From positions 21,659-85,658 of the forward strand of contig DAOUKQ010000010.1 in the NCBI GenBank assembly GCA_034421135.1: a DNA stretch of 64,000 nucleotides. The letters are read 5' to 3'. Of this stretch, positions 4,252 to 27,868 are shown piece after piece. The notes beneath the pieces are model-generated. The model ran no database searches. It was not told where the DNA came from and was given only the letters and a program-made list of their open reading frames with translations. Position 1 is the stretch's first letter, and every line of letters starts with the position of its first letter. The DNA is from Dehalococcoidia bacterium. Lineage in GTDB: Bacteria > Chloroflexota > Dehalococcoidia > Bin125. A program made the translations under genes and the position numbers.

Positions 4252-4289
4252 GGACGGTCGGTCGGCGATTCACCCCGCTCCCTTTGGAG

Positions 4290-4445
4290 ACCCGAGCGTA
4301 AACCAGATCCGGTCCCCTCTCCCCGCGGGAGAGGGTGAGGGTGAGGACCCTCGGTGGCCCCGATGAGTGGCGATGACCAGATAGGCAGAGGCCGCCGGAC
4401 CCTCACCCCGGCCCTCTCCCGGAGGGAGAGGGAGTAAGACCCCAG
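4290..4445. repeat. palindromic intergenic repeat element, family 1, copy A (composite: two inverted hairpin units)
   Basis: Carries gcgtaaaccagatccgg, the hairpin cccctctccccgcgggagaggg, then ...ccctctcccggagggagaggg and gtaagaccccagcga. It matches the reverse complement of the copy at 25338-25446 and has an extra inverted unit. The ORF-track entry 4242..4457(-) lies inside it and is an artefact. Confidence 0.7.
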
Positions 4446-4494
4446 CGACTTATGCACAGGTCTCTTTAGGAAGTGGGGACCGGAGGGATCGAAT

Positions 4495-5136: not shown

Positions 5137-6504
5137 ATGCGCAGATTACGCCCGCGCGGGCCTCGCGTCGTCCTTGGATTCTCCATTGGGCTGCTCCTGA
5201 TTACGATGCTGGCCGCCGCCTGCAGCGACGACACGCCCACGGTTGAGGATTCCGAGCAGGCCCAGTCGGAGCAAGCGGACGCCGCTGCACAGCCCCAGCA
5301 GGAACAGCAAGCGGAACCGATCGACGCCGCCCAGCAAGAGGGAGCCGAATCAACGGCGCAAGAGCAGGCCGCTGCACAGGAGCAGGCCGCCCAGCAGCAG
5401 TCCCAGGCCGAGCAAGAGCCGGCCGAGGAACAGGCCGACGCTCAATCGACCCAGTCCGAGCCAGTCGCAGACGACCCCGATCGTGACATCCTGATCGAGG
5501 GCGAGCTGTTTGCCTCATCGCTGGGACCGGACGAGGACGAGCGTCAGTTCCGCTTCCAGGCGGCGACCGGCGCCTGGCTGCGCGTCCATGTCGACGGCAA
5601 GGGCGGCATGGATCCCGTGGTCACGCTGCTCGATCCCGACGGCGTTGAAGTGGCCGTCAACGACGATCTCTCAACCACCAATCGCGACTCGCTGCTGATT
5701 GCCCAGGTACCCGTCGAGGGCTTGCAGTTCATCCGCGTGCAGCCGTTCGACTCCAACAGCCGCGGCGATTTCGTCATCCAGGTACAGACGCTGACGATCG
5801 GCGCGGACGACGACAACGCCGTCATTGCCGTTGGTACGAGCGCCGACGGTCGCCTGAACACTCCCAACGATGTGGACGTGTTCGAATTCCAGGTCGAGGC
5901 CGGTCAGCAGGTGTTCGTCCAGGTCGACGGCGACACCGGAGTGGATGTCTTCGCACAGCTCCTGCAGCCGGACGGCAACCTCGTCCAGATCGACGACGAC
6001 GGCGGACATGGTCTGGACTCCGAGATCTATTTCACGGCCGACACGGCCGGGCTCTGGCGAGTCGAAGTCTGGCCCGCGGTCAACCGGGCGGGGCAGCGCC
6101 AGTTGATCGGCGCGTACCGGGTCACGGTTCGCGAGGGTCTGCCGACGAGTGCCGTGAACGACGCCGTCGCCTCCGACCTCGCCGCTGCCGCGCTGACCTT
6201 CCTGCAAGCGCTTCGCGACGGCGACGCGCTCACCATCCTGGCGCTCGCCGGACCGGAGGCGCTCACGATCTGGGGCTGGGACGACGACAGCGACGTGGGC
6301 CGCGACATCCAGAAGATCCAATCGATCGATCTCGGCGGCGAGATCCTGCAGACGGCGTCCTTCGGCGATGTCCTGAATCCCGCTCGGGGCCGTGCATACC
6401 TGCAGTTCAGCGAGGATGACTGGATGCGATTCGAGCTGATCCAGCTCGGCGGCCGCTGGCTCGTCGACGATTGGGCACACAGCATTGGACCGCCGGGTTC
6501 TTGA
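5137..6504 (+). CDS. secreted lipoprotein with a Q/E/A-rich acidic linker and two pre-peptidase C-terminal (PPC)-like beta-sandwich domains
   Basis: Signal peptide with lipobox MRRLRPRG...LLITMLAAAC|SDD. About 90 aa of low-complexity QAEQE linker follows. Two repeats fit the PPC-domain pattern (G.LNTPNDVDVFEFQVEAGQ...VQVDG.). The start is taken at Met 5137 rather than the ORF-track start at 5044. Confidence 0.7.
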   Translation: MRRLRPRGPRVVLGFSIGLLLITMLAAACSDDTPTVEDSEQAQSEQADAAAQPQQEQQAEPIDAAQQEGAESTAQEQAAAQEQAAQQQSQAEQEPAEEQADAQSTQSEPVADDPDRDILIEGELFASSLGPDEDERQFRFQAATGAWLRVHVDGKGGMDPVVTLLDPDGVEVAVNDDLSTTNRDSLLIAQVPVEGLQFIRVQPFDSNSRGDFVIQVQTLTIGADDDNAVIAVGTSADGRLNTPNDVDVFEFQVEAGQQVFVQVDGDTGVDVFAQLLQPDGNLVQIDDDGGHGLDSEIYFTADTAGLWRVEVWPAVNRAGQRQLIGAYRVTVREGLPTSAVNDAVASDLAAAALTFLQALRDGDALTILALAGPEALTIWGWDDDSDVGRDIQKIQSIDLGGEILQTASFGDVLNPARGRAYLQFSEDDWMRFELIQLGGRWLVDDWAHSIGPPGS

Positions 6505-6602
6505 TCTGTTCACGATCGGCTCCGCTGGCCCAGACTCCAGCTGCTGATATCGTCACTGCGTATCCACAAAGTGAGCGCCTCGCAGCAGGTGGAGCGATTG
6601 CC

Positions 6603-7049
6603 ATGACCGATCAACAGAACGATGCCGACGGCCCGCTTGACGCCGTGATCGTGATGACCAACGGCGCCGATGCCGAGTGGTCGAATCACCGTTCGGGCAT
6701 GTCGATCCAGTTCGGCGTCTCGGGCGATCTCTCCGGCTCGGAAGAGGTCTTCATGACCCGGCAGAAGATTCCGCCCGGGATGTACTCGACGCCGCACTGG
6801 CACGTCAACTGCGAAACGGCGATCTACATCCTCCAGGGACCGGTCACGATGGCTTACGGCGAGCAACTGGAGCATGTGCACGAGTGCGAGAGTGGCGATT
6901 TCCTCTACGTGCCGCCGCGATCGATCCACCAGATCAGTAATCCACGCGACGATCGCGACGCCGAGGTCGTGCTCTGCCGCAACGCGGCGGAAGAGATCGT
7001 GGCGGAAGTGGACATCCCCGGCGCGCCCGGCTGCTCGCCGGCTGAGTAA
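6603..7049 (+). CDS. cupin domain protein
   Basis: Cupin motifs (HWH...E...GD.LYVP...H), with the start at the internal Met MTDQQ. Confidence 0.65.
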   Translation: MTDQQNDADGPLDAVIVMTNGADAEWSNHRSGMSIQFGVSGDLSGSEEVFMTRQKIPPGMYSTPHWHVNCETAIYILQGPVTMAYGEQLEHVHECESGDFLYVPPRSIHQISNPRDDRDAEVVLCRNAAEEIVAEVDIPGAPGCSPAE

Positions 7050-7082
7050 CCGGTACGCGCATGGAGTTGGTTCCCCGCTGGA

Positions 7083-7118
7083 ACCTCCGTCATACCCGCG
7101 CTTGGCGCGGGTATCTCG
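7083..7118. repeat. short palindromic repeat element, family 2 (stem ATACCCGCGC-ttgg-GCGCGGGTAT)
   Basis: cctccgtcatacccgcgcttggcgcgggtatctcg lies just after the cupin gene. It is a near-identical copy of the element at 30450-30483. Confidence 0.5.
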
Positions 7119-7250
7119 CCGCAACGAGCACCGACGCACGTTCCCATGGCGGCGAGCTTGCCGCGACAGGCGCGGCAATGTCGGAATGCTCTGGGCCCGA
7201 GAAACGCAGTGTGTACAGGTCCTGGCCGCGCTGGCAACTGCTTGGCCGGC

Positions 7251-8840
7251 TTAGCCGGCGGCCATCGCCAGCGATCGCGAAGCGTGTAGCTGATTCAGGT
7301 ACTCGAGCATCGTCGGGATGGCGGTGTGCGCGCCCGCGAGCGCGGTGACCACGAGGTCGGCGCCGATCACGTTGTCGCCGCCGGCGAACACGCCCGGCCT
7401 GGATGTCCGGCCGTGCTGGTCAACGATCACCTCGCCCCAGTCGTTCACGTCGATGCCGGAGTCGGCGTAGAGTTCACGACCCACGTCATATCCGACCGCG
7501 ACCACGAACGCGTCGCAGTCGATTACGAATTCCGACCCCGGAACCGGCGCGGGACGGCGGCGGCCGCTCTCGTCGGGCGCACCGAGGCTCATCCGCACGC
7601 ATTCAACCCCGACCACAGCGCCGTCGCGTTTGACGAGGCCGACCGGCGTGGTCAGGTACTCGAAGATCACGCCCTCTTCGCGCGCGTGGCGGCGCTCTTC
7701 CTCGCGGCCCACCATTTCATTCTCGGTGCGCCGATAGAGCAGCGTGACCTGGTCGGCGCCGAGACGCACGGCGGAACGCACGCAATCCATCGAGGTATCT
7801 CCACCTCCAACGACAACCACCTTGCGTCCCACATCGGGAGTGGACCGCAGGACGGTCGGAAGCATCGTGTCGCCGAGGTTGGCGCGGACCAGGAACTCGG
7901 TGGCGCTGTACACACGCGCCAGTCGCTCGCCATCGAGACCCAGTCGCTTGCCGACGCTCGCGCCGTGCCCGAGGAACACCGCGTCGAAGCGGGACAGTTC
8001 GTCCCAACCGATGTCGACGCCGACTCGAGTGTCGAAGCGGAACTCAACGCCCGCCTCGCTCAGCGCATGGACTTTCTCGTCAACGATGTCCTTGGCCGTC
8101 TTGAAGTTGGGAATGCCGTAGCGCAACACGCCTCCGGCGGCGGGCCAGGATTCGAATACGGTCACGGCGTGACCGGCGATCCGCATCTGCTCGGCGACGG
8201 CCAAGCCGGCCGGCCCCGAGCCGACGACGGCGATGCGCTGTCCGCTCTCGTGCTCCGGCTCGAGAACGGGGAAGCCGCCGCGTTGCTTCCGATCCCAATC
8301 GCCCAGGAAGGCTTCCAGCTTGCCGATAGCGACGGGCTTCGCATTCTTGCCGATCACACACGATCCCTCGCAGAGCGCCTCTTGCGGACAGAGACGCCCA
8401 CAGAGTTCCGGCATCTCCGATGTCCGGCGGAAGACGGCTGCTGCGTCGGCCAGTTTGCCGATCTCGAGGTAGGCGAGCGCGCCGGGAATGTCATTGTCAA
8501 CCGGACAGGCTTGGGTGCAGGGCGCGGCCGGGCATTGGATGCAGCGCTGAGCCTCGAACATCGCCGGTCCTGCGGTATAGCCGTAGTAGACCTCGTCCCA
8601 GTTGCGGACGCGGTCATGCGGAGTCTGCTTGGTCACGTGATGCGGGGGAATGCGTAAGCGCTGTCGCCGATCGATCGGCAGGCCGGCGCGCGTCAACTGC
8701 TGTTTCTTGGCCCGCTGCTTGCCCCGCTGCCCGTTCTGCCGTTTGGTCTGCTGCGGCGCTGCCGACTTGCCTGCCTTGGGCGGCGGTTCCGGCTCGCCGT
8801 GGTTGGAATCGATCGTCTCGTCCGGCATCTCAGCCCACAC
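7251..8840 (-). CDS. gltD: glutamate synthase small-subunit-like NADPH-dependent FAD/Fe-S oxidoreductase (GltD family)
   Basis: Two Cys clusters, FAD/NAD Rossmann motifs (VVGSGPAGL, VVVGGGDTSMDC) and GltD-like N- and C-termini, plus an unusual ~50-aa basic N-terminal extension. Confidence 0.8.
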   Translation of the reverse strand: MWAEMPDETIDSNHGEPEPPPKAGKSAAPQQTKRQNGQRGKQRAKKQQLTRAGLPIDRRQRLRIPPHHVTKQTPHDRVRNWDEVYYGYTAGPAMFEAQRCIQCPAAPCTQACPVDNDIPGALAYLEIGKLADAAAVFRRTSEMPELCGRLCPQEALCEGSCVIGKNAKPVAIGKLEAFLGDWDRKQRGGFPVLEPEHESGQRIAVVGSGPAGLAVAEQMRIAGHAVTVFESWPAAGGVLRYGIPNFKTAKDIVDEKVHALSEAGVEFRFDTRVGVDIGWDELSRFDAVFLGHGASVGKRLGLDGERLARVYSATEFLVRANLGDTMLPTVLRSTPDVGRKVVVVGGGDTSMDCVRSAVRLGADQVTLLYRRTENEMVGREEERRHAREEGVIFEYLTTPVGLVKRDGAVVGVECVRMSLGAPDESGRRRPAPVPGSEFVIDCDAFVVAVGYDVGRELYADSGIDVNDWGEVIVDQHGRTSRPGVFAGGDNVIGADLVVTALAGAHTAIPTMLEYLNQLHASRSLAMAAG

Positions 8841-24204: not shown

Positions 24205-25347
24205 ATGCCCGACTTTGCCGCGCACACCTGGGATGCCGTCGTGATCGGCGCTGGTCCGGCCGGCGCGACGGCGGCTCGTCGGCTCAGCGCAGCCGGCGCG
24301 TCGACTTTGCTGATCGAGAAACAGGCGCTGCCGCGCTACAAGGCTTGCGGGGGAGGCGTTCCCGCACGAACGATTCAACTGCTCGACGATCTGGACATCT
24401 CGCCGGTCAGCGAGGGCTATGTCGACACCATCGATATCTCCCGCCTCGGCCGGCATCAGTTCCGCAAGACATCCGATCAACCGCTCGCCTGGATGGTGAT
24501 GCGAGACCGCTTCGACCAGTTCCTCACCGACATCGCGGTGGAAGCCGGAGCCTGTATCCAGGACAAGACGCCGGTTCAATCGATCACCACTCGTGCGCAG
24601 CATTACGACCTGGAGACGCCAGCCGGTACGGTTCGAGCCCGGCACATCATCGCCGCCGACGGAGCCACCGGACCAACTGCGCGATGGTTGAACATCGGCG
24701 CTGCCCCAACGCGCAGCGCGGCCTACGAGGTCGAGGTGGCAGCGCCGCGCCCCGCGCTCGAGCACTGGCACGGGGCGGCCAACGTCGATATCGGCTACCG
24801 GCCGTGGGGCTACGGCTGGGTCTTTCCCAAAGCTGGCAAGCTCTCCGTCGGTGTGGTCAACGCGCCGAAACGCGGGCGCTCAATCCGAAAGCACACCGAC
24901 CGCTATCTCGAGCGTCTCGGCCTCAGCGCCGCTGAAGTAATCAAGGTCCAGGGTCATCCGATTCGCTACCGCCGATCGAGCCGAGAACCCGTCGCGGCAG
25001 GCCGCACGCTGCTGCTCGGCGACGCCGCCGGTCTCGCCGACGAGTTCACCGCTGAGGGCATCGCCTACGCCGTGCATTCGGCCAACCTCGCAGCAGAGGC
25101 ATTGCTCACATCAGACGAACCCGCTGCTGTCTACACAAGATCGATCAACCAGGAGATCCAACCCGAGCTCAACGCCGCGAGAACCATCTCCCGTCTCTAT
25201 TACTGGTGCGTCACCACCTGGCCCTGGCTCGCGCTAAAGACATCCAAGCACGTCGACTACCTCTGGCGAGCCTTCTTTCGAGTCATGCGCGGCGACTCCA
25301 CCTACGCCGCCGAGCTCTCGAGAGTCCCTCTGATCCCCTCTCCCTGA
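24205..25347 (+). CDS. geranylgeranyl reductase family FAD-dependent oxidoreductase
   Basis: DAVVIGAGPAGATAA FAD motif and the characteristic ...YKACGGGVP... of the GGR family. Confidence 0.75.
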   Translation: MPDFAAHTWDAVVIGAGPAGATAARRLSAAGASTLLIEKQALPRYKACGGGVPARTIQLLDDLDISPVSEGYVDTIDISRLGRHQFRKTSDQPLAWMVMRDRFDQFLTDIAVEAGACIQDKTPVQSITTRAQHYDLETPAGTVRARHIIAADGATGPTARWLNIGAAPTRSAAYEVEVAAPRPALEHWHGAANVDIGYRPWGYGWVFPKAGKLSVGVVNAPKRGRSIRKHTDRYLERLGLSAAEVIKVQGHPIRYRRSSREPVAAGRTLLLGDAAGLADEFTAEGIAYAVHSANLAAEALLTSDEPAAVYTRSINQEIQPELNAARTISRLYYWCVTTWPWLALKTSKHVDYLWRAFFRVMRGDSTYAAELSRVPLIPSP

Positions 25348-25446
25348 GGAGACCAGCGCGTAAATCGCTGGGGTCTTACCCCCTCTCCCGCGGGGAGAGG
25401 GGGCCGGATCTGGTTTACGCGCAGTTCTCCTGAGGGAGAGGGTTAG
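25338..25446. repeat. palindromic intergenic repeat element, family 1, copy B
   Basis: Outer arms gcgcgtaaa...tttacgcgc enclose the hairpin cccctctcccgcggggagaggg. It is the reverse complement of the core of the 4290-4445 copy, and it abuts the start of small-membrane-protein paralog 1. Confidence 0.7.
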
Positions 25447-25456
25447 GGTGAGGGCC

Positions 25457-25816
25457 ATGCCGTGGCTAGTGCTGGATCACCTTGGGGTCGGCCTCATCGA
25501 GTTCGTTGGGATCTTGTTCCTCTTCTTCGTGGCCCCGTCACTCGTTGGCGCCGTCGCCGGCACTTGGATCATGTGGGGGAAGGATCGGAGCCTCTTCCTC
25601 GGCTTTCTGATGGGCTTCGCCATCGGCGCCGCGGGCACGGCGATCGGATGGGGGTTAGTGGTATTGGTCAGCCATCTTGCGCCCTACTTCGTCGGATTGA
25701 CCCTGGAGGTCGCCGCACTCATCGCGATCGCGAAGCATCTGCCAAACGGCGAACCGGACACTTATCTGAGACCAACCGCCCCGCCCAAACCAGACCGAAC
25801 AGACCCTCACCAGTGA
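25457..25816 (+). CDS. small membrane protein, paralog 1 of a tandem family (N-terminal MPWLVLD motif)
   Basis: Hydrophobic, ~2-3 TM segments. Protein and nucleotide similarity to 25846..26144 and 26937..27167. A conserved 5' region (tagggtgag[g/c]gccATGcc[g/c]tggct) is shared with paralog 2. Confidence 0.55.
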   Translation: MPWLVLDHLGVGLIEFVGILFLFFVAPSLVGAVAGTWIMWGKDRSLFLGFLMGFAIGAAGTAIGWGLVVLVSHLAPYFVGLTLEVAALIAIAKHLPNGEPDTYLRPTAPPKPDRTDPHQ

Positions 25817-25845
25817 CCCGTTGCCGGGTGCTAGGGTGAGCGCCA

Positions 25846-26144
25846 TGCCCTGGCTCGTTCTGGACAATCTTGGAATCGAGCCATGGCAGTTCTTTGCACT
25901 GCTATCTATCTTCTTCGTCGGGATTCCACTTGCCGTCGGCGTTGGCGGCTACCTGCTCATGTCGAGCCTGGGACGCAGCCGCAAACTCGGGTTCTTTCTG
26001 GGTACATTGTGGGCGGCGGGCATCATCGCTGCGCTGGCGATTGAGTGGCTTGGCGAGGGCGTAGCGCTGATTCTTGTTGTGGCCGCTGTCGTCTGGATCT
26101 GCTGGCAGTTCCGACAGCGAGGTCGTGACCCAGATGACCCGTGA
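25846..26144 (+). CDS. small membrane protein, paralog 2 (MPWLVLDNLG...)
   Basis: See paralog 1; same family, hydrophobic core FFVGIPLAVGVGG. Confidence 0.55.
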
Positions 26145-26902
26145 CCGAACAGGCTCCTGTCGGTCACTACACTGAACACACCAATCGGAGCGACATGTCC
26201 AACCGCGATGCCCACACCTCGACTCAGACCCTGGTCCGTTTCCGCCTCCCGGACCCGCCAGAGCGTGAGCCGGACGAAGTGACTTCCTACGACTTCGTCT
26301 ATGAAGACGGTGTGACCGCGTGCTTGAAGTGGCACTTCGGGCATCCGGAGTCGACCCTGGTCAAGGCAGACAAGTGGATCGCCGCTTACGTCGGCTACCG
26401 GCCGCTGCGCCGACCCGACCTCTTGGTCGCATTCAACGTCGATCCCGAGCTCTACCGCGAGCAGAACGGCTATGTGATCTCGGACCAGGGCAAGCCGCCC
26501 GACTTCGTGCTGGAAGTCGCCTCGCCGAGCACGGCCGAGGTAGACACGGTCCAGAAGCGTCAGGAGTACGCGTCGCTGGGCATCCGCGAGTACTGGCGCT
26601 TCGACCACACCGGCGAGTCGCACGGGACGCGCCTGGCCGGCGATCGGTTGGTTGGCGATCGATATGAGCCAATCGACATCGTCGAGATCGCGCCGGACAT
26701 TCTGCAGGGCGAGAGCGAAGCCCTGAACCTCTGGCTTCGCTGGGAGGACGGCGAACTGGGCTGGTACGACCCGGCCACCGGCGAGCACATCCCCACCTTC
26801 GACAGCACCCAGGCCGAACTCGCCGCCGAACGCGAGGCGCGCCAGGCCTCCGAAACCAGGGTCCGCGAGCTGGAAGCCGAACTCCGCCGCCTGCGGGAGT
26901 GA
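26141..26902 (+). CDS. Uma2 family endonuclease (DUF820, PD-(D/E)xK putative restriction endonuclease-like)
   Basis: The core PDFVLEVASPSTAEVDTVQKRQEYASLGIREYWRFD matches the Uma2 PD-(D/E)xK signature. GTGA overlap with paralog 2. The N-terminus is unusually long and the start is uncertain. Confidence 0.6.
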   Translation: MTEQAPVGHYTEHTNRSDMSNRDAHTSTQTLVRFRLPDPPEREPDEVTSYDFVYEDGVTACLKWHFGHPESTLVKADKWIAAYVGYRPLRRPDLLVAFNVDPELYREQNGYVISDQGKPPDFVLEVASPSTAEVDTVQKRQEYASLGIREYWRFDHTGESHGTRLAGDRLVGDRYEPIDIVEIAPDILQGESEALNLWLRWEDGELGWYDPATGEHIPTFDSTQAELAAEREARQASETRVRELEAELRRLRE

Positions 26903-26936
26903 GCTTCCCAGCTCGACGCGTTCCCGCCTCACGAGG

Positions 26937-27167
26937 ATGACCCGCGTGGAGCTCCCAAACATCGCCGCCGCCTGGCTCGTCCTGGACCATGGGTCGGACG
27001 TTGCGATTTTCGCATCGATCGCTGGGATTTTCCTGGGTATCCCACTGGTCGCCGGCGTGATCGGAGCGGCAATCATGTCTCGTCTTGGGCGACGGTGGCA
27101 GGACGGAATGTTGTTCGCGGCGCTCTTAGCCCTCCTGGTCGTCGTCATCGTCCTGTTCGGGACCTGA
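26937..27167 (+). CDS. small membrane protein, paralog 3 (AAWLVLDHGS...)
   Basis: Same family as 25457 and 25846 (GIFLGIPLVAGVIGA). Nucleotide similarity around ctggctcgtcctggac. Confidence 0.5.
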   Translation: MTRVELPNIAAAWLVLDHGSDVAIFASIAGIFLGIPLVAGVIGAAIMSRLGRRWQDGMLFAALLALLVVVIVLFGT

Positions 27168-27177
27168 AGGCTGAGTC

Positions 27178-27868
27178 GATGCCACGCCGACGCCGCACAC
27201 CCAGACCCCTCCGACCCACCGCGATCATCAACCGCCTGATCCGCGAAGCCCCCCTCACGCCCTGGCGCGCCACCAACGACCCCGTCACCGAACTCGTCCT
27301 CACCCTGCTCTCGCAGAACACCTCCGACACCAACTCGGGACGCGCTTTCCAGGCACTACTCAAGCGTTATCCCGACTGGGACGCCGTGCTCGAAGCGCCG
27401 GTTGAGGAACTGGAGGAGACGATCCGGCCCGGCGGACTCGCCAGAACCAAGGCCCCGCGAATGCAGGCGCTCCTGTCCCAGCTCCGCGAGCGGCTCGGCC
27501 CCGAGTGGGACGCTTCACGGCTCGAAGACATGCCGATCGACGAAGCCAAGCGGTGGCTGACCGAGCTGCCCGGCGTCGGACCCAAGACCGCCGCCTGCGT
27601 CCTGCTCTTCTCGCTCGGACGTCCGGCGCTGCCAGTCGATACCCACGTCCACCGAGTCGCCATCCGCCTCGGACTGATCGGCGCCAGGGTCGCCGCCGTC
27701 CCGGCCCACGACATGCTGGAGGCGCAACTGCCGCCCGACAGGTACTACGACTTCCACGTCACCCTGATCCGCCACGGACGCCGCGTCTGCCACAAACAGC
27801 GACCGAGATGCGGCGAGTGCGTGCTGCTGGATCGCTGTCCGGGAGCGGACGATTTCATCTACGGCTGA
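27178..27868 (+). CDS. nth: endonuclease III-like HhH-GPD DNA glycosylase with a 4Fe-4S cluster loop
   Basis: HhH-GPD motif LPGVGPKTAACVLLFSLGRPALPVDTHVHRV and the C-terminal Cys cluster CHKQRPRCGECVLLDRC. Confidence 0.7.

Follow-up and report, generated by a model that had tools for sequence, protein, structure and literature searches.

Why do three small membrane-protein genes, a nuclease gene and a palindromic repeat lie side by side between two chromosomal genes, and do they form one unit? We have addressed this question in a 64-kb stretch of contig DAOUKQ010000010.1 from a Dehalococcoidia bacterium, hereafter the window. All window features of the gene array lie on the + strand, in the order geranylgeranyl-reductase-family flavoprotein gene (GGR), palindromic element, small paralogues P1 and P2, Uma2 nuclease gene, paralogue P3 and nth, an endonuclease-III-like DNA glycosylase gene (Table 1). 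An earlier note, made from this DNA alone, had proposed a recently duplicated gene family that travels with the repeat and is split by the nuclease gene. The account that we consider probable is a different one. The small genes would be old paralogues confined to one hotspot, where they undergo tandem duplication and recombination, and Uma2 and the palindromic element would be neighbors independent of them.

Table 1. Features of the array and of the second repeat copy, in window coordinates (aa, amino acids; nt, nucleotides; TM, transmembrane; REP, repetitive extragenic palindrome; MITE, miniature inverted-repeat transposable element; ORF, open reading frame).
Feature	Coordinates	Strand	Remarks
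Palindromic element, copy B	4274..4488	.	Inverted; extra ~97-nt insert with second core hairpin; no adjacent family gene
GGR	24205..25347	+	Left border; NCBIfam TIGR02032, 212 bits (cutoff 158.8)
Palindromic element, copy A	25325..25441	.	REP/MITE-like, nested, ~115 nt; overlaps GGR stop codon
P1 leader TTAGGGTGAGGGCC	25442..25456	+	Probable ribosome-binding region (GGTGA)
P1	25457..25816	+	119 aa, 3 predicted TM helices, Pro-rich basic C-tail
P2 leader CTAGGGTGAGCGCC	25830..25844	+	Duplicated together with the gene
P2	25845..26144	+	99 aa, 3 predicted TM helices
Uma2-family PD-(D/E)xK nuclease gene	26195..26902	+	C-terminal coiled coil; ORF open from GTG 26141
P3	26937..27167	+	76 aa from ATG 26937, 2 TM helices
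nth	27179..27868	+	Right border; Pfam HhH-GPD, 52 bits (cutoff 26.2)

The three same-strand ORFs of the earlier note are indeed present as paralogues, with the start of P2 at 25845 and not, as had been given, one nucleotide later at 25846. When P1, P2 and P3 are aligned, identity to P1 is 38% and W-L-V-L-D is invariant; tblastn within the window links P1 to P2 (E=1e-7) and P2 to P3 (E=4e-5). Neither tblastn nor a family hidden Markov model (HMM) found a further copy in the window outside 25457-27167. A hydropathy scan gave three, three and two TM segments for P1, P2 and P3, respectively, in keeping with the membrane proteins that had been predicted. All three begin with a short acidic N-tail that bears W-x-x-LVL(D/N)G; GIPL/GxxG marks the first of two TM helices, between which lies a basic loop, and P1 and P2 add a third helix and a tail. 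The N-tail is the most conserved part of the family; it contains no Lys or Arg in P1 and P2 and a single Arg in P3, and with a basic first loop the positive-inside rule, applied to the hydropathy scan, would place the N-tail outside (N-out topology). An AlphaFold model of P3 consists of a short N-terminal helix and a helical hairpin, with a pLDDT of 82. The start of P3 may lie further downstream than listed, at GTG 26946: this is the start position in several relatives, and several P3-type genes can only start at the equivalent position, so that P3 may be 73 aa long, not 76.

Relatives of the locus were found on contigs of metagenome-assembled genomes of uncultured Dehalococcoidia (Chloroflexota), labelled L001 onward. 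The ORFs are conserved as proteins in these relatives: the ratio of nonsynonymous to synonymous divergence (dN/dS) lay between 0.12 and 0.58 in 16/16 orthologous comparisons of the small genes, which argues that P1-P3 are genuine protein-coding paralogues under moderate constraint. P1 has orthologues in L001, L002, L005, L085 and L086 (dN/dS 0.31-0.49 for pairs with the window), P2 has a 97% identical orthologue in L002 (0.20), and P3 is near-identical in L001 and L005 (0.12-0.20). The corresponding values for the flanking genes were 0.18-0.28 for GGR, 0.08-0.10 for nth and 0.26-0.29 for Uma2. GC contents at codon positions 1/2/3 of P1-P3 are ~0.65/0.44/0.67-0.77, with third position (GC3) above first (GC1) above second (GC2), as in the neighboring genes.

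The near-identical starts of P1 and P2 had been taken as a sign of recent duplication. The 18-nt leader/start string itself, TAGGGTGAG[G/C]GCCATGCC, is real; with 0.05 occurrences expected, the window contains exactly two, one at P1 and one at P2. Synonymous divergence (dS) between the window paralogues is 1.6-2.0, i.e. saturated, which points to old duplications; the alike 5' ends reflect a conserved leader and N-terminal motif, not recency. A metagenome-wide scan for the exact leader/start GGGTGAGSGCCATGCCSTGGCT returned four unrelated chance matches and no family members.

No recognized family accommodates the small proteins, and the earlier note was right on this point. The best matches of P1-P3 in Pfam-A and NCBIfam were far below cutoff (E>=0.0045), no PADLOC model rose above noise, and a PDB profile search gave 0 matches at E<=1. 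The family is also rare: 15 family clusters were retrieved by a word-indexed search of 5.8 billion clusters, and 11 family members at E<=1e-3 by an exhaustive HMMER search of 1.84 billion representatives. P1-P3 thus represent a previously undescribed, lineage-restricted orphan family of small integral membrane proteins.

Every member with readable context (10 loci: L001-L005, L010 and L085-L088) is located between GGR and nth, within a wider conserved block of ACAD(-)/GGR/.../nth/carboxylesterase in which GGR is syntenic across all related loci. The contents of the GGR-nth gap vary strongly, with 0 to 5 family copies. The window carries P1 P2 Uma2 P3 (two family genes, Uma2, one family gene), and L002/L003 carry P1 P1' P2 Uma2 P3 P3 (in L002 three, Uma2, two). 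P1 is followed in L001 by a 46-aa Uma2 remnant, comprising the N- and C-termini only, and three P3-type genes, and in L005 by Uma2 and four P3-type genes. Shorter arrangements are a P2-like gene, Uma2 and P3 in L004, Uma2 P3 in L010, and Uma2 only in L007, L013, L015, L018 and L028. Uma2 stands with a different membrane protein that has a Cys-rich C-terminal domain in L006, L008 and L023, and L085, L086 and L087 hold family genes and no Uma2. The single family gene of L087 overlaps both the GGR stop and the nth start. From these positions the family appears to be confined to one hypervariable chromosomal spot of an uncultured Dehalococcoidia clade.

The spacers within the array suggest how it grows. 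Those between P1, P1' and P2 copies include ~25 nt of the P1 leader (...TAGGGTGAG(G/C)GCC ATG), and the spacer type with the P2 leader recurs between P1, P1' and P2 in L002. Spacers between P3-type copies, found in the relatives, can be aligned to the ~65 nt at the start of nth (ATGCCTCGCCGACGCCGCACACCC...CCAACCG), so that each duplication unit of this type would be P3 plus the nth 5' end. Copy number would accordingly be changed by local tandem duplication and deletion through unequal crossing-over, in which P1/P2-type units bring along ~25 nt with their own leader and ribosome-binding site and P3-type units bring the first ~65 nt of nth. The nth 5'-end copies between P3 units (L001 7065-7130, L005 5315-5380 and equivalents) contain a short Arg-rich ORF, MPRRRRTPSHP...H*, with a TAG stop 1 base ahead of the next P3 ATG; some copies have no ATG. 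Given the position of this stop, translational coupling to P3 could occur.

The alleles at the locus are mosaic. Nucleotide identity between L002 and the window is 94-97% in the flanks and 81-86% in the locus, and the same pair has a dS of 0.37 for P1 and 0.06 for GGR. The window P3 is related to its counterpart in L001 with a dS of 0.10, where the flanks are at 0.51-0.72. The first 18 residues of the window P3 and of L002 P3a are identical, and the remainder is unrelated in detail. Allelic exchange between strains is the simplest reading of this pattern, in which alleles would be swapped by homologous recombination. At the level of the P3 cassette, the window copy (26937-27167) and those of L001 (7131-7361) and L005 (6001-6231) are 95-97% identical in protein, with a dS of ~0.10-0.12 against 0.5-0.7 for the flanking genes, which suggests that this cassette alone was recently exchanged horizontally or underwent gene conversion.

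A possible origin of the TM core was indicated by profile comparison. With hhalign, the family profile was aligned to a set composed of the N-terminal TM hairpin of the L006/L008 proteins and two orphan proteins, with 96.9% probability (E=1.5e-10, 51 columns), and GAxIMSxKxRSxxxGFxxG is common to both; the family HMM matches the L006 and L008 proteins at about 1e-4. Relatives of the hairpin are numerous, most have a C-terminal zf-ribbon_3 domain (PF13248), and in their sources they are called no more than 'zinc ribbon domain-containing' or hypothetical. No Cys motif follows the TM region in P1, P2 or P3, and none of the three has a zf-ribbon match in Pfam; the family thus seems to share the hairpin of this group and not its C-terminal zinc ribbon. 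With these relatives in mind, the family looks like a local derivative of the hairpin module. Its TM core may descend from a widespread two-TM hairpin (GAxIMSxKGRSxxxGFxLG) that is elsewhere fused to a zinc ribbon, and in the family ancestor the ribbon would have been lost and the N-terminal LVLDG motif acquired. The proteins that fill the Uma2-nth gap in L006 (4824-5444), L008 (4904-5386) and L023 (4844-5158) are 104-206 aa long; they start with a TM segment or hairpin and end in a Cys-rich domain (YRWEC..C). Those of L006 and L008 have weak, sub-threshold similarity to DUF7848, and their hairpin is distantly related to the family. Derivation of the MPWLVLD of P1 from a 'WPWLALK' string near the GGR C-terminus was considered and rejected, the string being too short to test.

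The Uma2 gene raises the question of whether nuclease and small proteins act together. The Uma2 assignment of the earlier note is secure (Pfam DUF820, PF05685: 54.7 bits, cutoff 27, E=1.1e-14). The note had coupled the gene to P2 through an overlapping GTGA. ACTGAACACACCAATCGGAGCGAC followed by ATG precedes Uma2 in all loci, including those with GGR ending just upstream, and ATG 26195 is for this reason likely to be the start rather than GTG 26141, which overlaps P2; the coupling is therefore doubtful. Nor does Uma2 seem to split a pre-existing array, as had been supposed. It is present between GGR and nth in 14/18 syntenic loci, in addition to the remnant in L001, and five of these loci (L007, L013, L015, L018 and L028) have Uma2 without the family, just as L085, L086 and L087 have the family without Uma2. 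Since each occurs without the other, Uma2 would be an independent, widespread occupant of the same hotspot, and its gene at the locus is probably at least as old as the small family.

The reading that best survives among the alternatives treats the small membrane proteins and Uma2 as one functional module, for example for defense/abortive infection or as a toxin/immunity pair, with the variability of the array as the product of an arms race. In favor of it, the small genes tightly flank Uma2 on the same strand in seven loci including the window, hypervariability and mosaicism mark the locus, L006, L008 and L023 have other membrane proteins in place of the family, and Uma2 matches PADLOC PDC-S03 (E=1.5e-15), itself only a defense candidate. 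The separate occurrences of family and Uma2 speak against such a module, as does the outcome of a search with the family HMM beside 65 non-syntenic Uma2 paralogue loci that were fetched, in which 0/65 had a family member; the small proteins themselves stay at noise level against the PADLOC models. We regard the module as unlikely. Among the titles and abstracts returned by a literature search on Uma2/DUF820, none hints at small membrane partners.

The Uma2 gene also has a history of its own. In L001 (6345-6485) it is reduced to a 46-aa in-frame remnant, from which the nuclease domain is cleanly deleted and in which the extended N-terminal leader region (YTEHTNRSDMANRDA) is joined to the C-terminal coiled coil (RVRELEAELRRLRE). 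The coiled-coil subtype forms a large multi-copy family with 454 confirmed relatives, several per genome; chromosome OY820591.1 has five Uma2 copies among the top 80 matches (loci L006-L084).

A second alternative makes the small proteins accessory membrane subunits of the GGR enzyme encoded upstream, which acts on membrane-embedded polyprenyl substrates. P1 always follows GGR on the same strand, after 5-110 nt, and the double overlap in L087 indicates one operon. Against these arrangements stand nine syntenic loci with Uma2 directly after GGR and no P1-type gene, five of them without any family gene; P3-type copies are separated from GGR by Uma2, and copy-number variation would be unusual for a stoichiometric subunit. 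The presence/absence pattern weakens the subunit reading and the Uma2 module alike, and we think it quite improbable that GGR has such subunits.

What remains for the small proteins is a general proposal, to which we attach low confidence: they may be dispensable, strain-variable membrane proteins with a conserved N-tail facing outward, for which a cell-envelope accessory or conflict role seems likelier than a housekeeping role. Any specific biological role is held with clearly less confidence than the structural and evolutionary account. One such role, speculative and unlikely in our judgment, is a strain-diversifying cassette system, in which a constant outward W-x-x-LVLDG tag is combined with rapidly swapped and amplified TM cassettes, with a Uma2 nuclease in the recombination hotspot, for phage exclusion or inter-strain conflict in sponge-associated/marine Dehalococcoidia. 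If true, it would be a new kind of small-membrane-protein defense or immunity array, and should pressure from phages or competitors lie behind the variability, Dehalococcoidia would have in this family a new conflict factor at the envelope level. Holin or type I toxin identity was rejected, as there was no model match and no partner gene. Holin matches were sub-threshold only (E>=0.09) and limited to distant relatives of the family, and typical holin, toxin or bacteriocin partners, such as an endolysin, antisense RNA or bacteriocin gene, are not among the neighbors, which are GGR, Uma2 and nth, with no Rfam RNA.

The palindromic element was the other proposed partner of the family. The repeat and its second copy, both reported in the earlier note, are real: copy A is predicted to form, as RNA, a single long hairpin of nested structure (-90.2 kcal/mol, z=-7.0), copy B is inverted, and the window contains the core CCCTCTCCC-N3-6-GGGAGAGGG 3 times where 0 are expected. 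The two copies are multi-copy, intergenic and strongly self-complementary, as REP/MITE-like elements are. The core is also present in other Dehalococcoidia loci that lack a family gene, and element copies were observed at L025 1751-1866, L026 1752-1867 and 6022-6098, L030 594-719 and L021 6078-6152. The element has no Rfam family.

The note had placed the P1 leader in the 3' edge of this repeat. In the alignment of copies A and B, homology stops at ...GGGAGAGGG, after which TTAGGGTGAGG follows at P1 and GTGAATCG at copy B; the leader TAGGGTGAGGGCC lies beyond the homology and is found in relatives without the ~115-nt element. It is conserved upstream of P1 in L001, L002, L085 and L086, all of them without the full element. 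L002, the closest relative (GGR 96.6% identical in amino acids), and L001 read CCCCTCTCCC(T/C)GAGGGAGA...GGTTAGGGTGAGG(G/T)CCATG at this junction, i.e. a small native hairpin and the leader, without the ~75-nt insert. Because homology ends before the leader and L001 and L002 possess the leader without the element, the leader appears to be the translation-initiation region of P1 itself and no piece of the repeat. Within it, GGTGA complements the 3' end of 16S rRNA, from which we infer a ribosome-binding role. The fragment said to recur in the other copy, GAGGGTGAGG at 4331-4346, lies at an internal, non-equivalent position and is G-rich and of low complexity.

Could the family nonetheless have been mobilized or duplicated with the repeat, whose 3' edge would supply its leader or promoter? 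P1 directly abuts the element, L085 and L086 have a short core hairpin where the 3' end of GGR meets P1, and the GAGGGTGAGG string lies inside copy B. The leader is outside the repeat homology, however, and L001 and L002 have leader, ATG and gene with no element; P2, P3 and all other paralogues are without one, repeat copies elsewhere (in the window, L021, L025, L026, L030, L056 and L058) have no family gene, and the family itself is at one locus only. Family copies are thus not found at different sites bounded by the repeat, the leader is not within the repeat, and the search for further copies tied to the repeat led back to the single syntenic locus for all members with context. That repeat and gene start travel together, as the note had it, is in our estimate extremely improbable. 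L001, L002, L004 and L005 lack the element at this site, which is occupied in the window lineage alone; the composite element would have arisen in that lineage by expansion of a hairpin resembling a terminator or a REP. The expansion would be particular to this genome: a genome-wide REP/MITE-like hairpin element may have enlarged the small native hairpin at the GGR 3' end, beside the ribosome-binding region of P1. At the insertion junction are two imperfect copies of TCTCC(C)TGAGG(G)AGA and no clean target-site duplication.

It is likewise highly improbable that the three ORFs are no genes and their frames are open by chance in GC-rich intergenic DNA. P1-P3 are short, hydrophobic and match no database family, and at 65% GC this sequence has many long spurious ORFs, but the frame is kept across paralogues diverged to 38% identity, dN/dS is <1 in all comparisons with a gene-like GC3 pattern, and the TM architecture, motifs and leaders of the small genes are conserved.

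Several points weigh against the account of old paralogues in one recombining hotspot. Values of dN/dS reaching 0.58 are fairly relaxed. Unequal crossing-over was deduced from the structure of the units, not observed. Most member contigs are metagenomic, and some members are on short contigs without context. TM-rich sequence inflates profile-profile scores, which leaves the link to the zinc-ribbon hairpin insecure, and the suggested biological role is conjectural. With these points considered, we still hold the old paralogy, single hotspot, tandem duplication and recombination, and independence of Uma2 and the palindromic element to be probable as a whole. The locus would then be a clean example of an orphan small-membrane-protein family born and amplified in an uncultured lineage, and of a hotspot whose expansion and contraction leave readable scars, here copies of the 5' end of a neighboring gene. 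It also carries a warning that a palindromic repeat or nuclease gene next door is, by itself, no proof of a functional or mobility link.

Other features of the region were recorded in passing. nth is below the NCBIfam cutoffs of NF053634 (183 bits, cutoff 400) and TIGR01083 (110 bits, cutoff 211.7). An Rfam scan of 24900-27400 gave a single sub-threshold match, whalefall-1 (E=0.53), and a promoter/terminator scan found no promoter-like site and terminator-like sites that were no commoner than in shuffles. The conserved block varies at one further place: nth and the carboxylesterase gene, direct neighbors in the other loci, are set apart in L028 by an additional ~1.7 kb (5530-7263). Two imperfect 43-nt direct repeats, 87 nt apart, at 5267-5396 of the window (CGGAGCAAGCGGACGCCGCTGCACAGCC...) are probably a repeated Q/A-rich coding segment.

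Each component of the locus can be set beside a known system. The palindromic element resembles REP/MITE-like palindromes in its length of ~115-215 nt, its nested, near-perfect palindrome, its intergenic position and its several copies per genome and in related genomes; unlike the typical representatives, it has no clear target-site duplication, and no REP-associated tyrosine transposase (RAYT) or other transposase was identified in the 64 kb of genome covered. The middle gene is a clear member of the known Uma2 nucleases, with an added C-terminal coiled coil; a link to the small proteins would be hypothetical. With the zinc-ribbon membrane proteins (GAxIMSxKGRSxxxGFxLGxxLGxIG plus PF13248), whose hairpin is covered by no Pfam model, the family shares small size and a core of TM1, basic loop and TM2; in L006 and L008, the gap between Uma2 and nth is likewise filled by a homologue with hairpin and Cys-rich C-terminus. 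The family differs from them in having no ribbon, its own W-x-x-LVL(D/N)G N-extension, a third TM helix in P1 and P2, and tandem arrays at one locus. A last comparison, made from general knowledge, is with tandem, strain-variable arrays of small membrane proteins such as those for bacteriocin immunity or superinfection exclusion. Unlike immunity and exclusion arrays, the family has no match to an immunity, holin or toxin family, and toxin, bacteriocin or phage genes were not found nearby. Like such hotspot arrays, it consists of head-to-tail, divergent paralogues whose copy number varies between close relatives and whose alleles are exchanged in a mosaic fashion.

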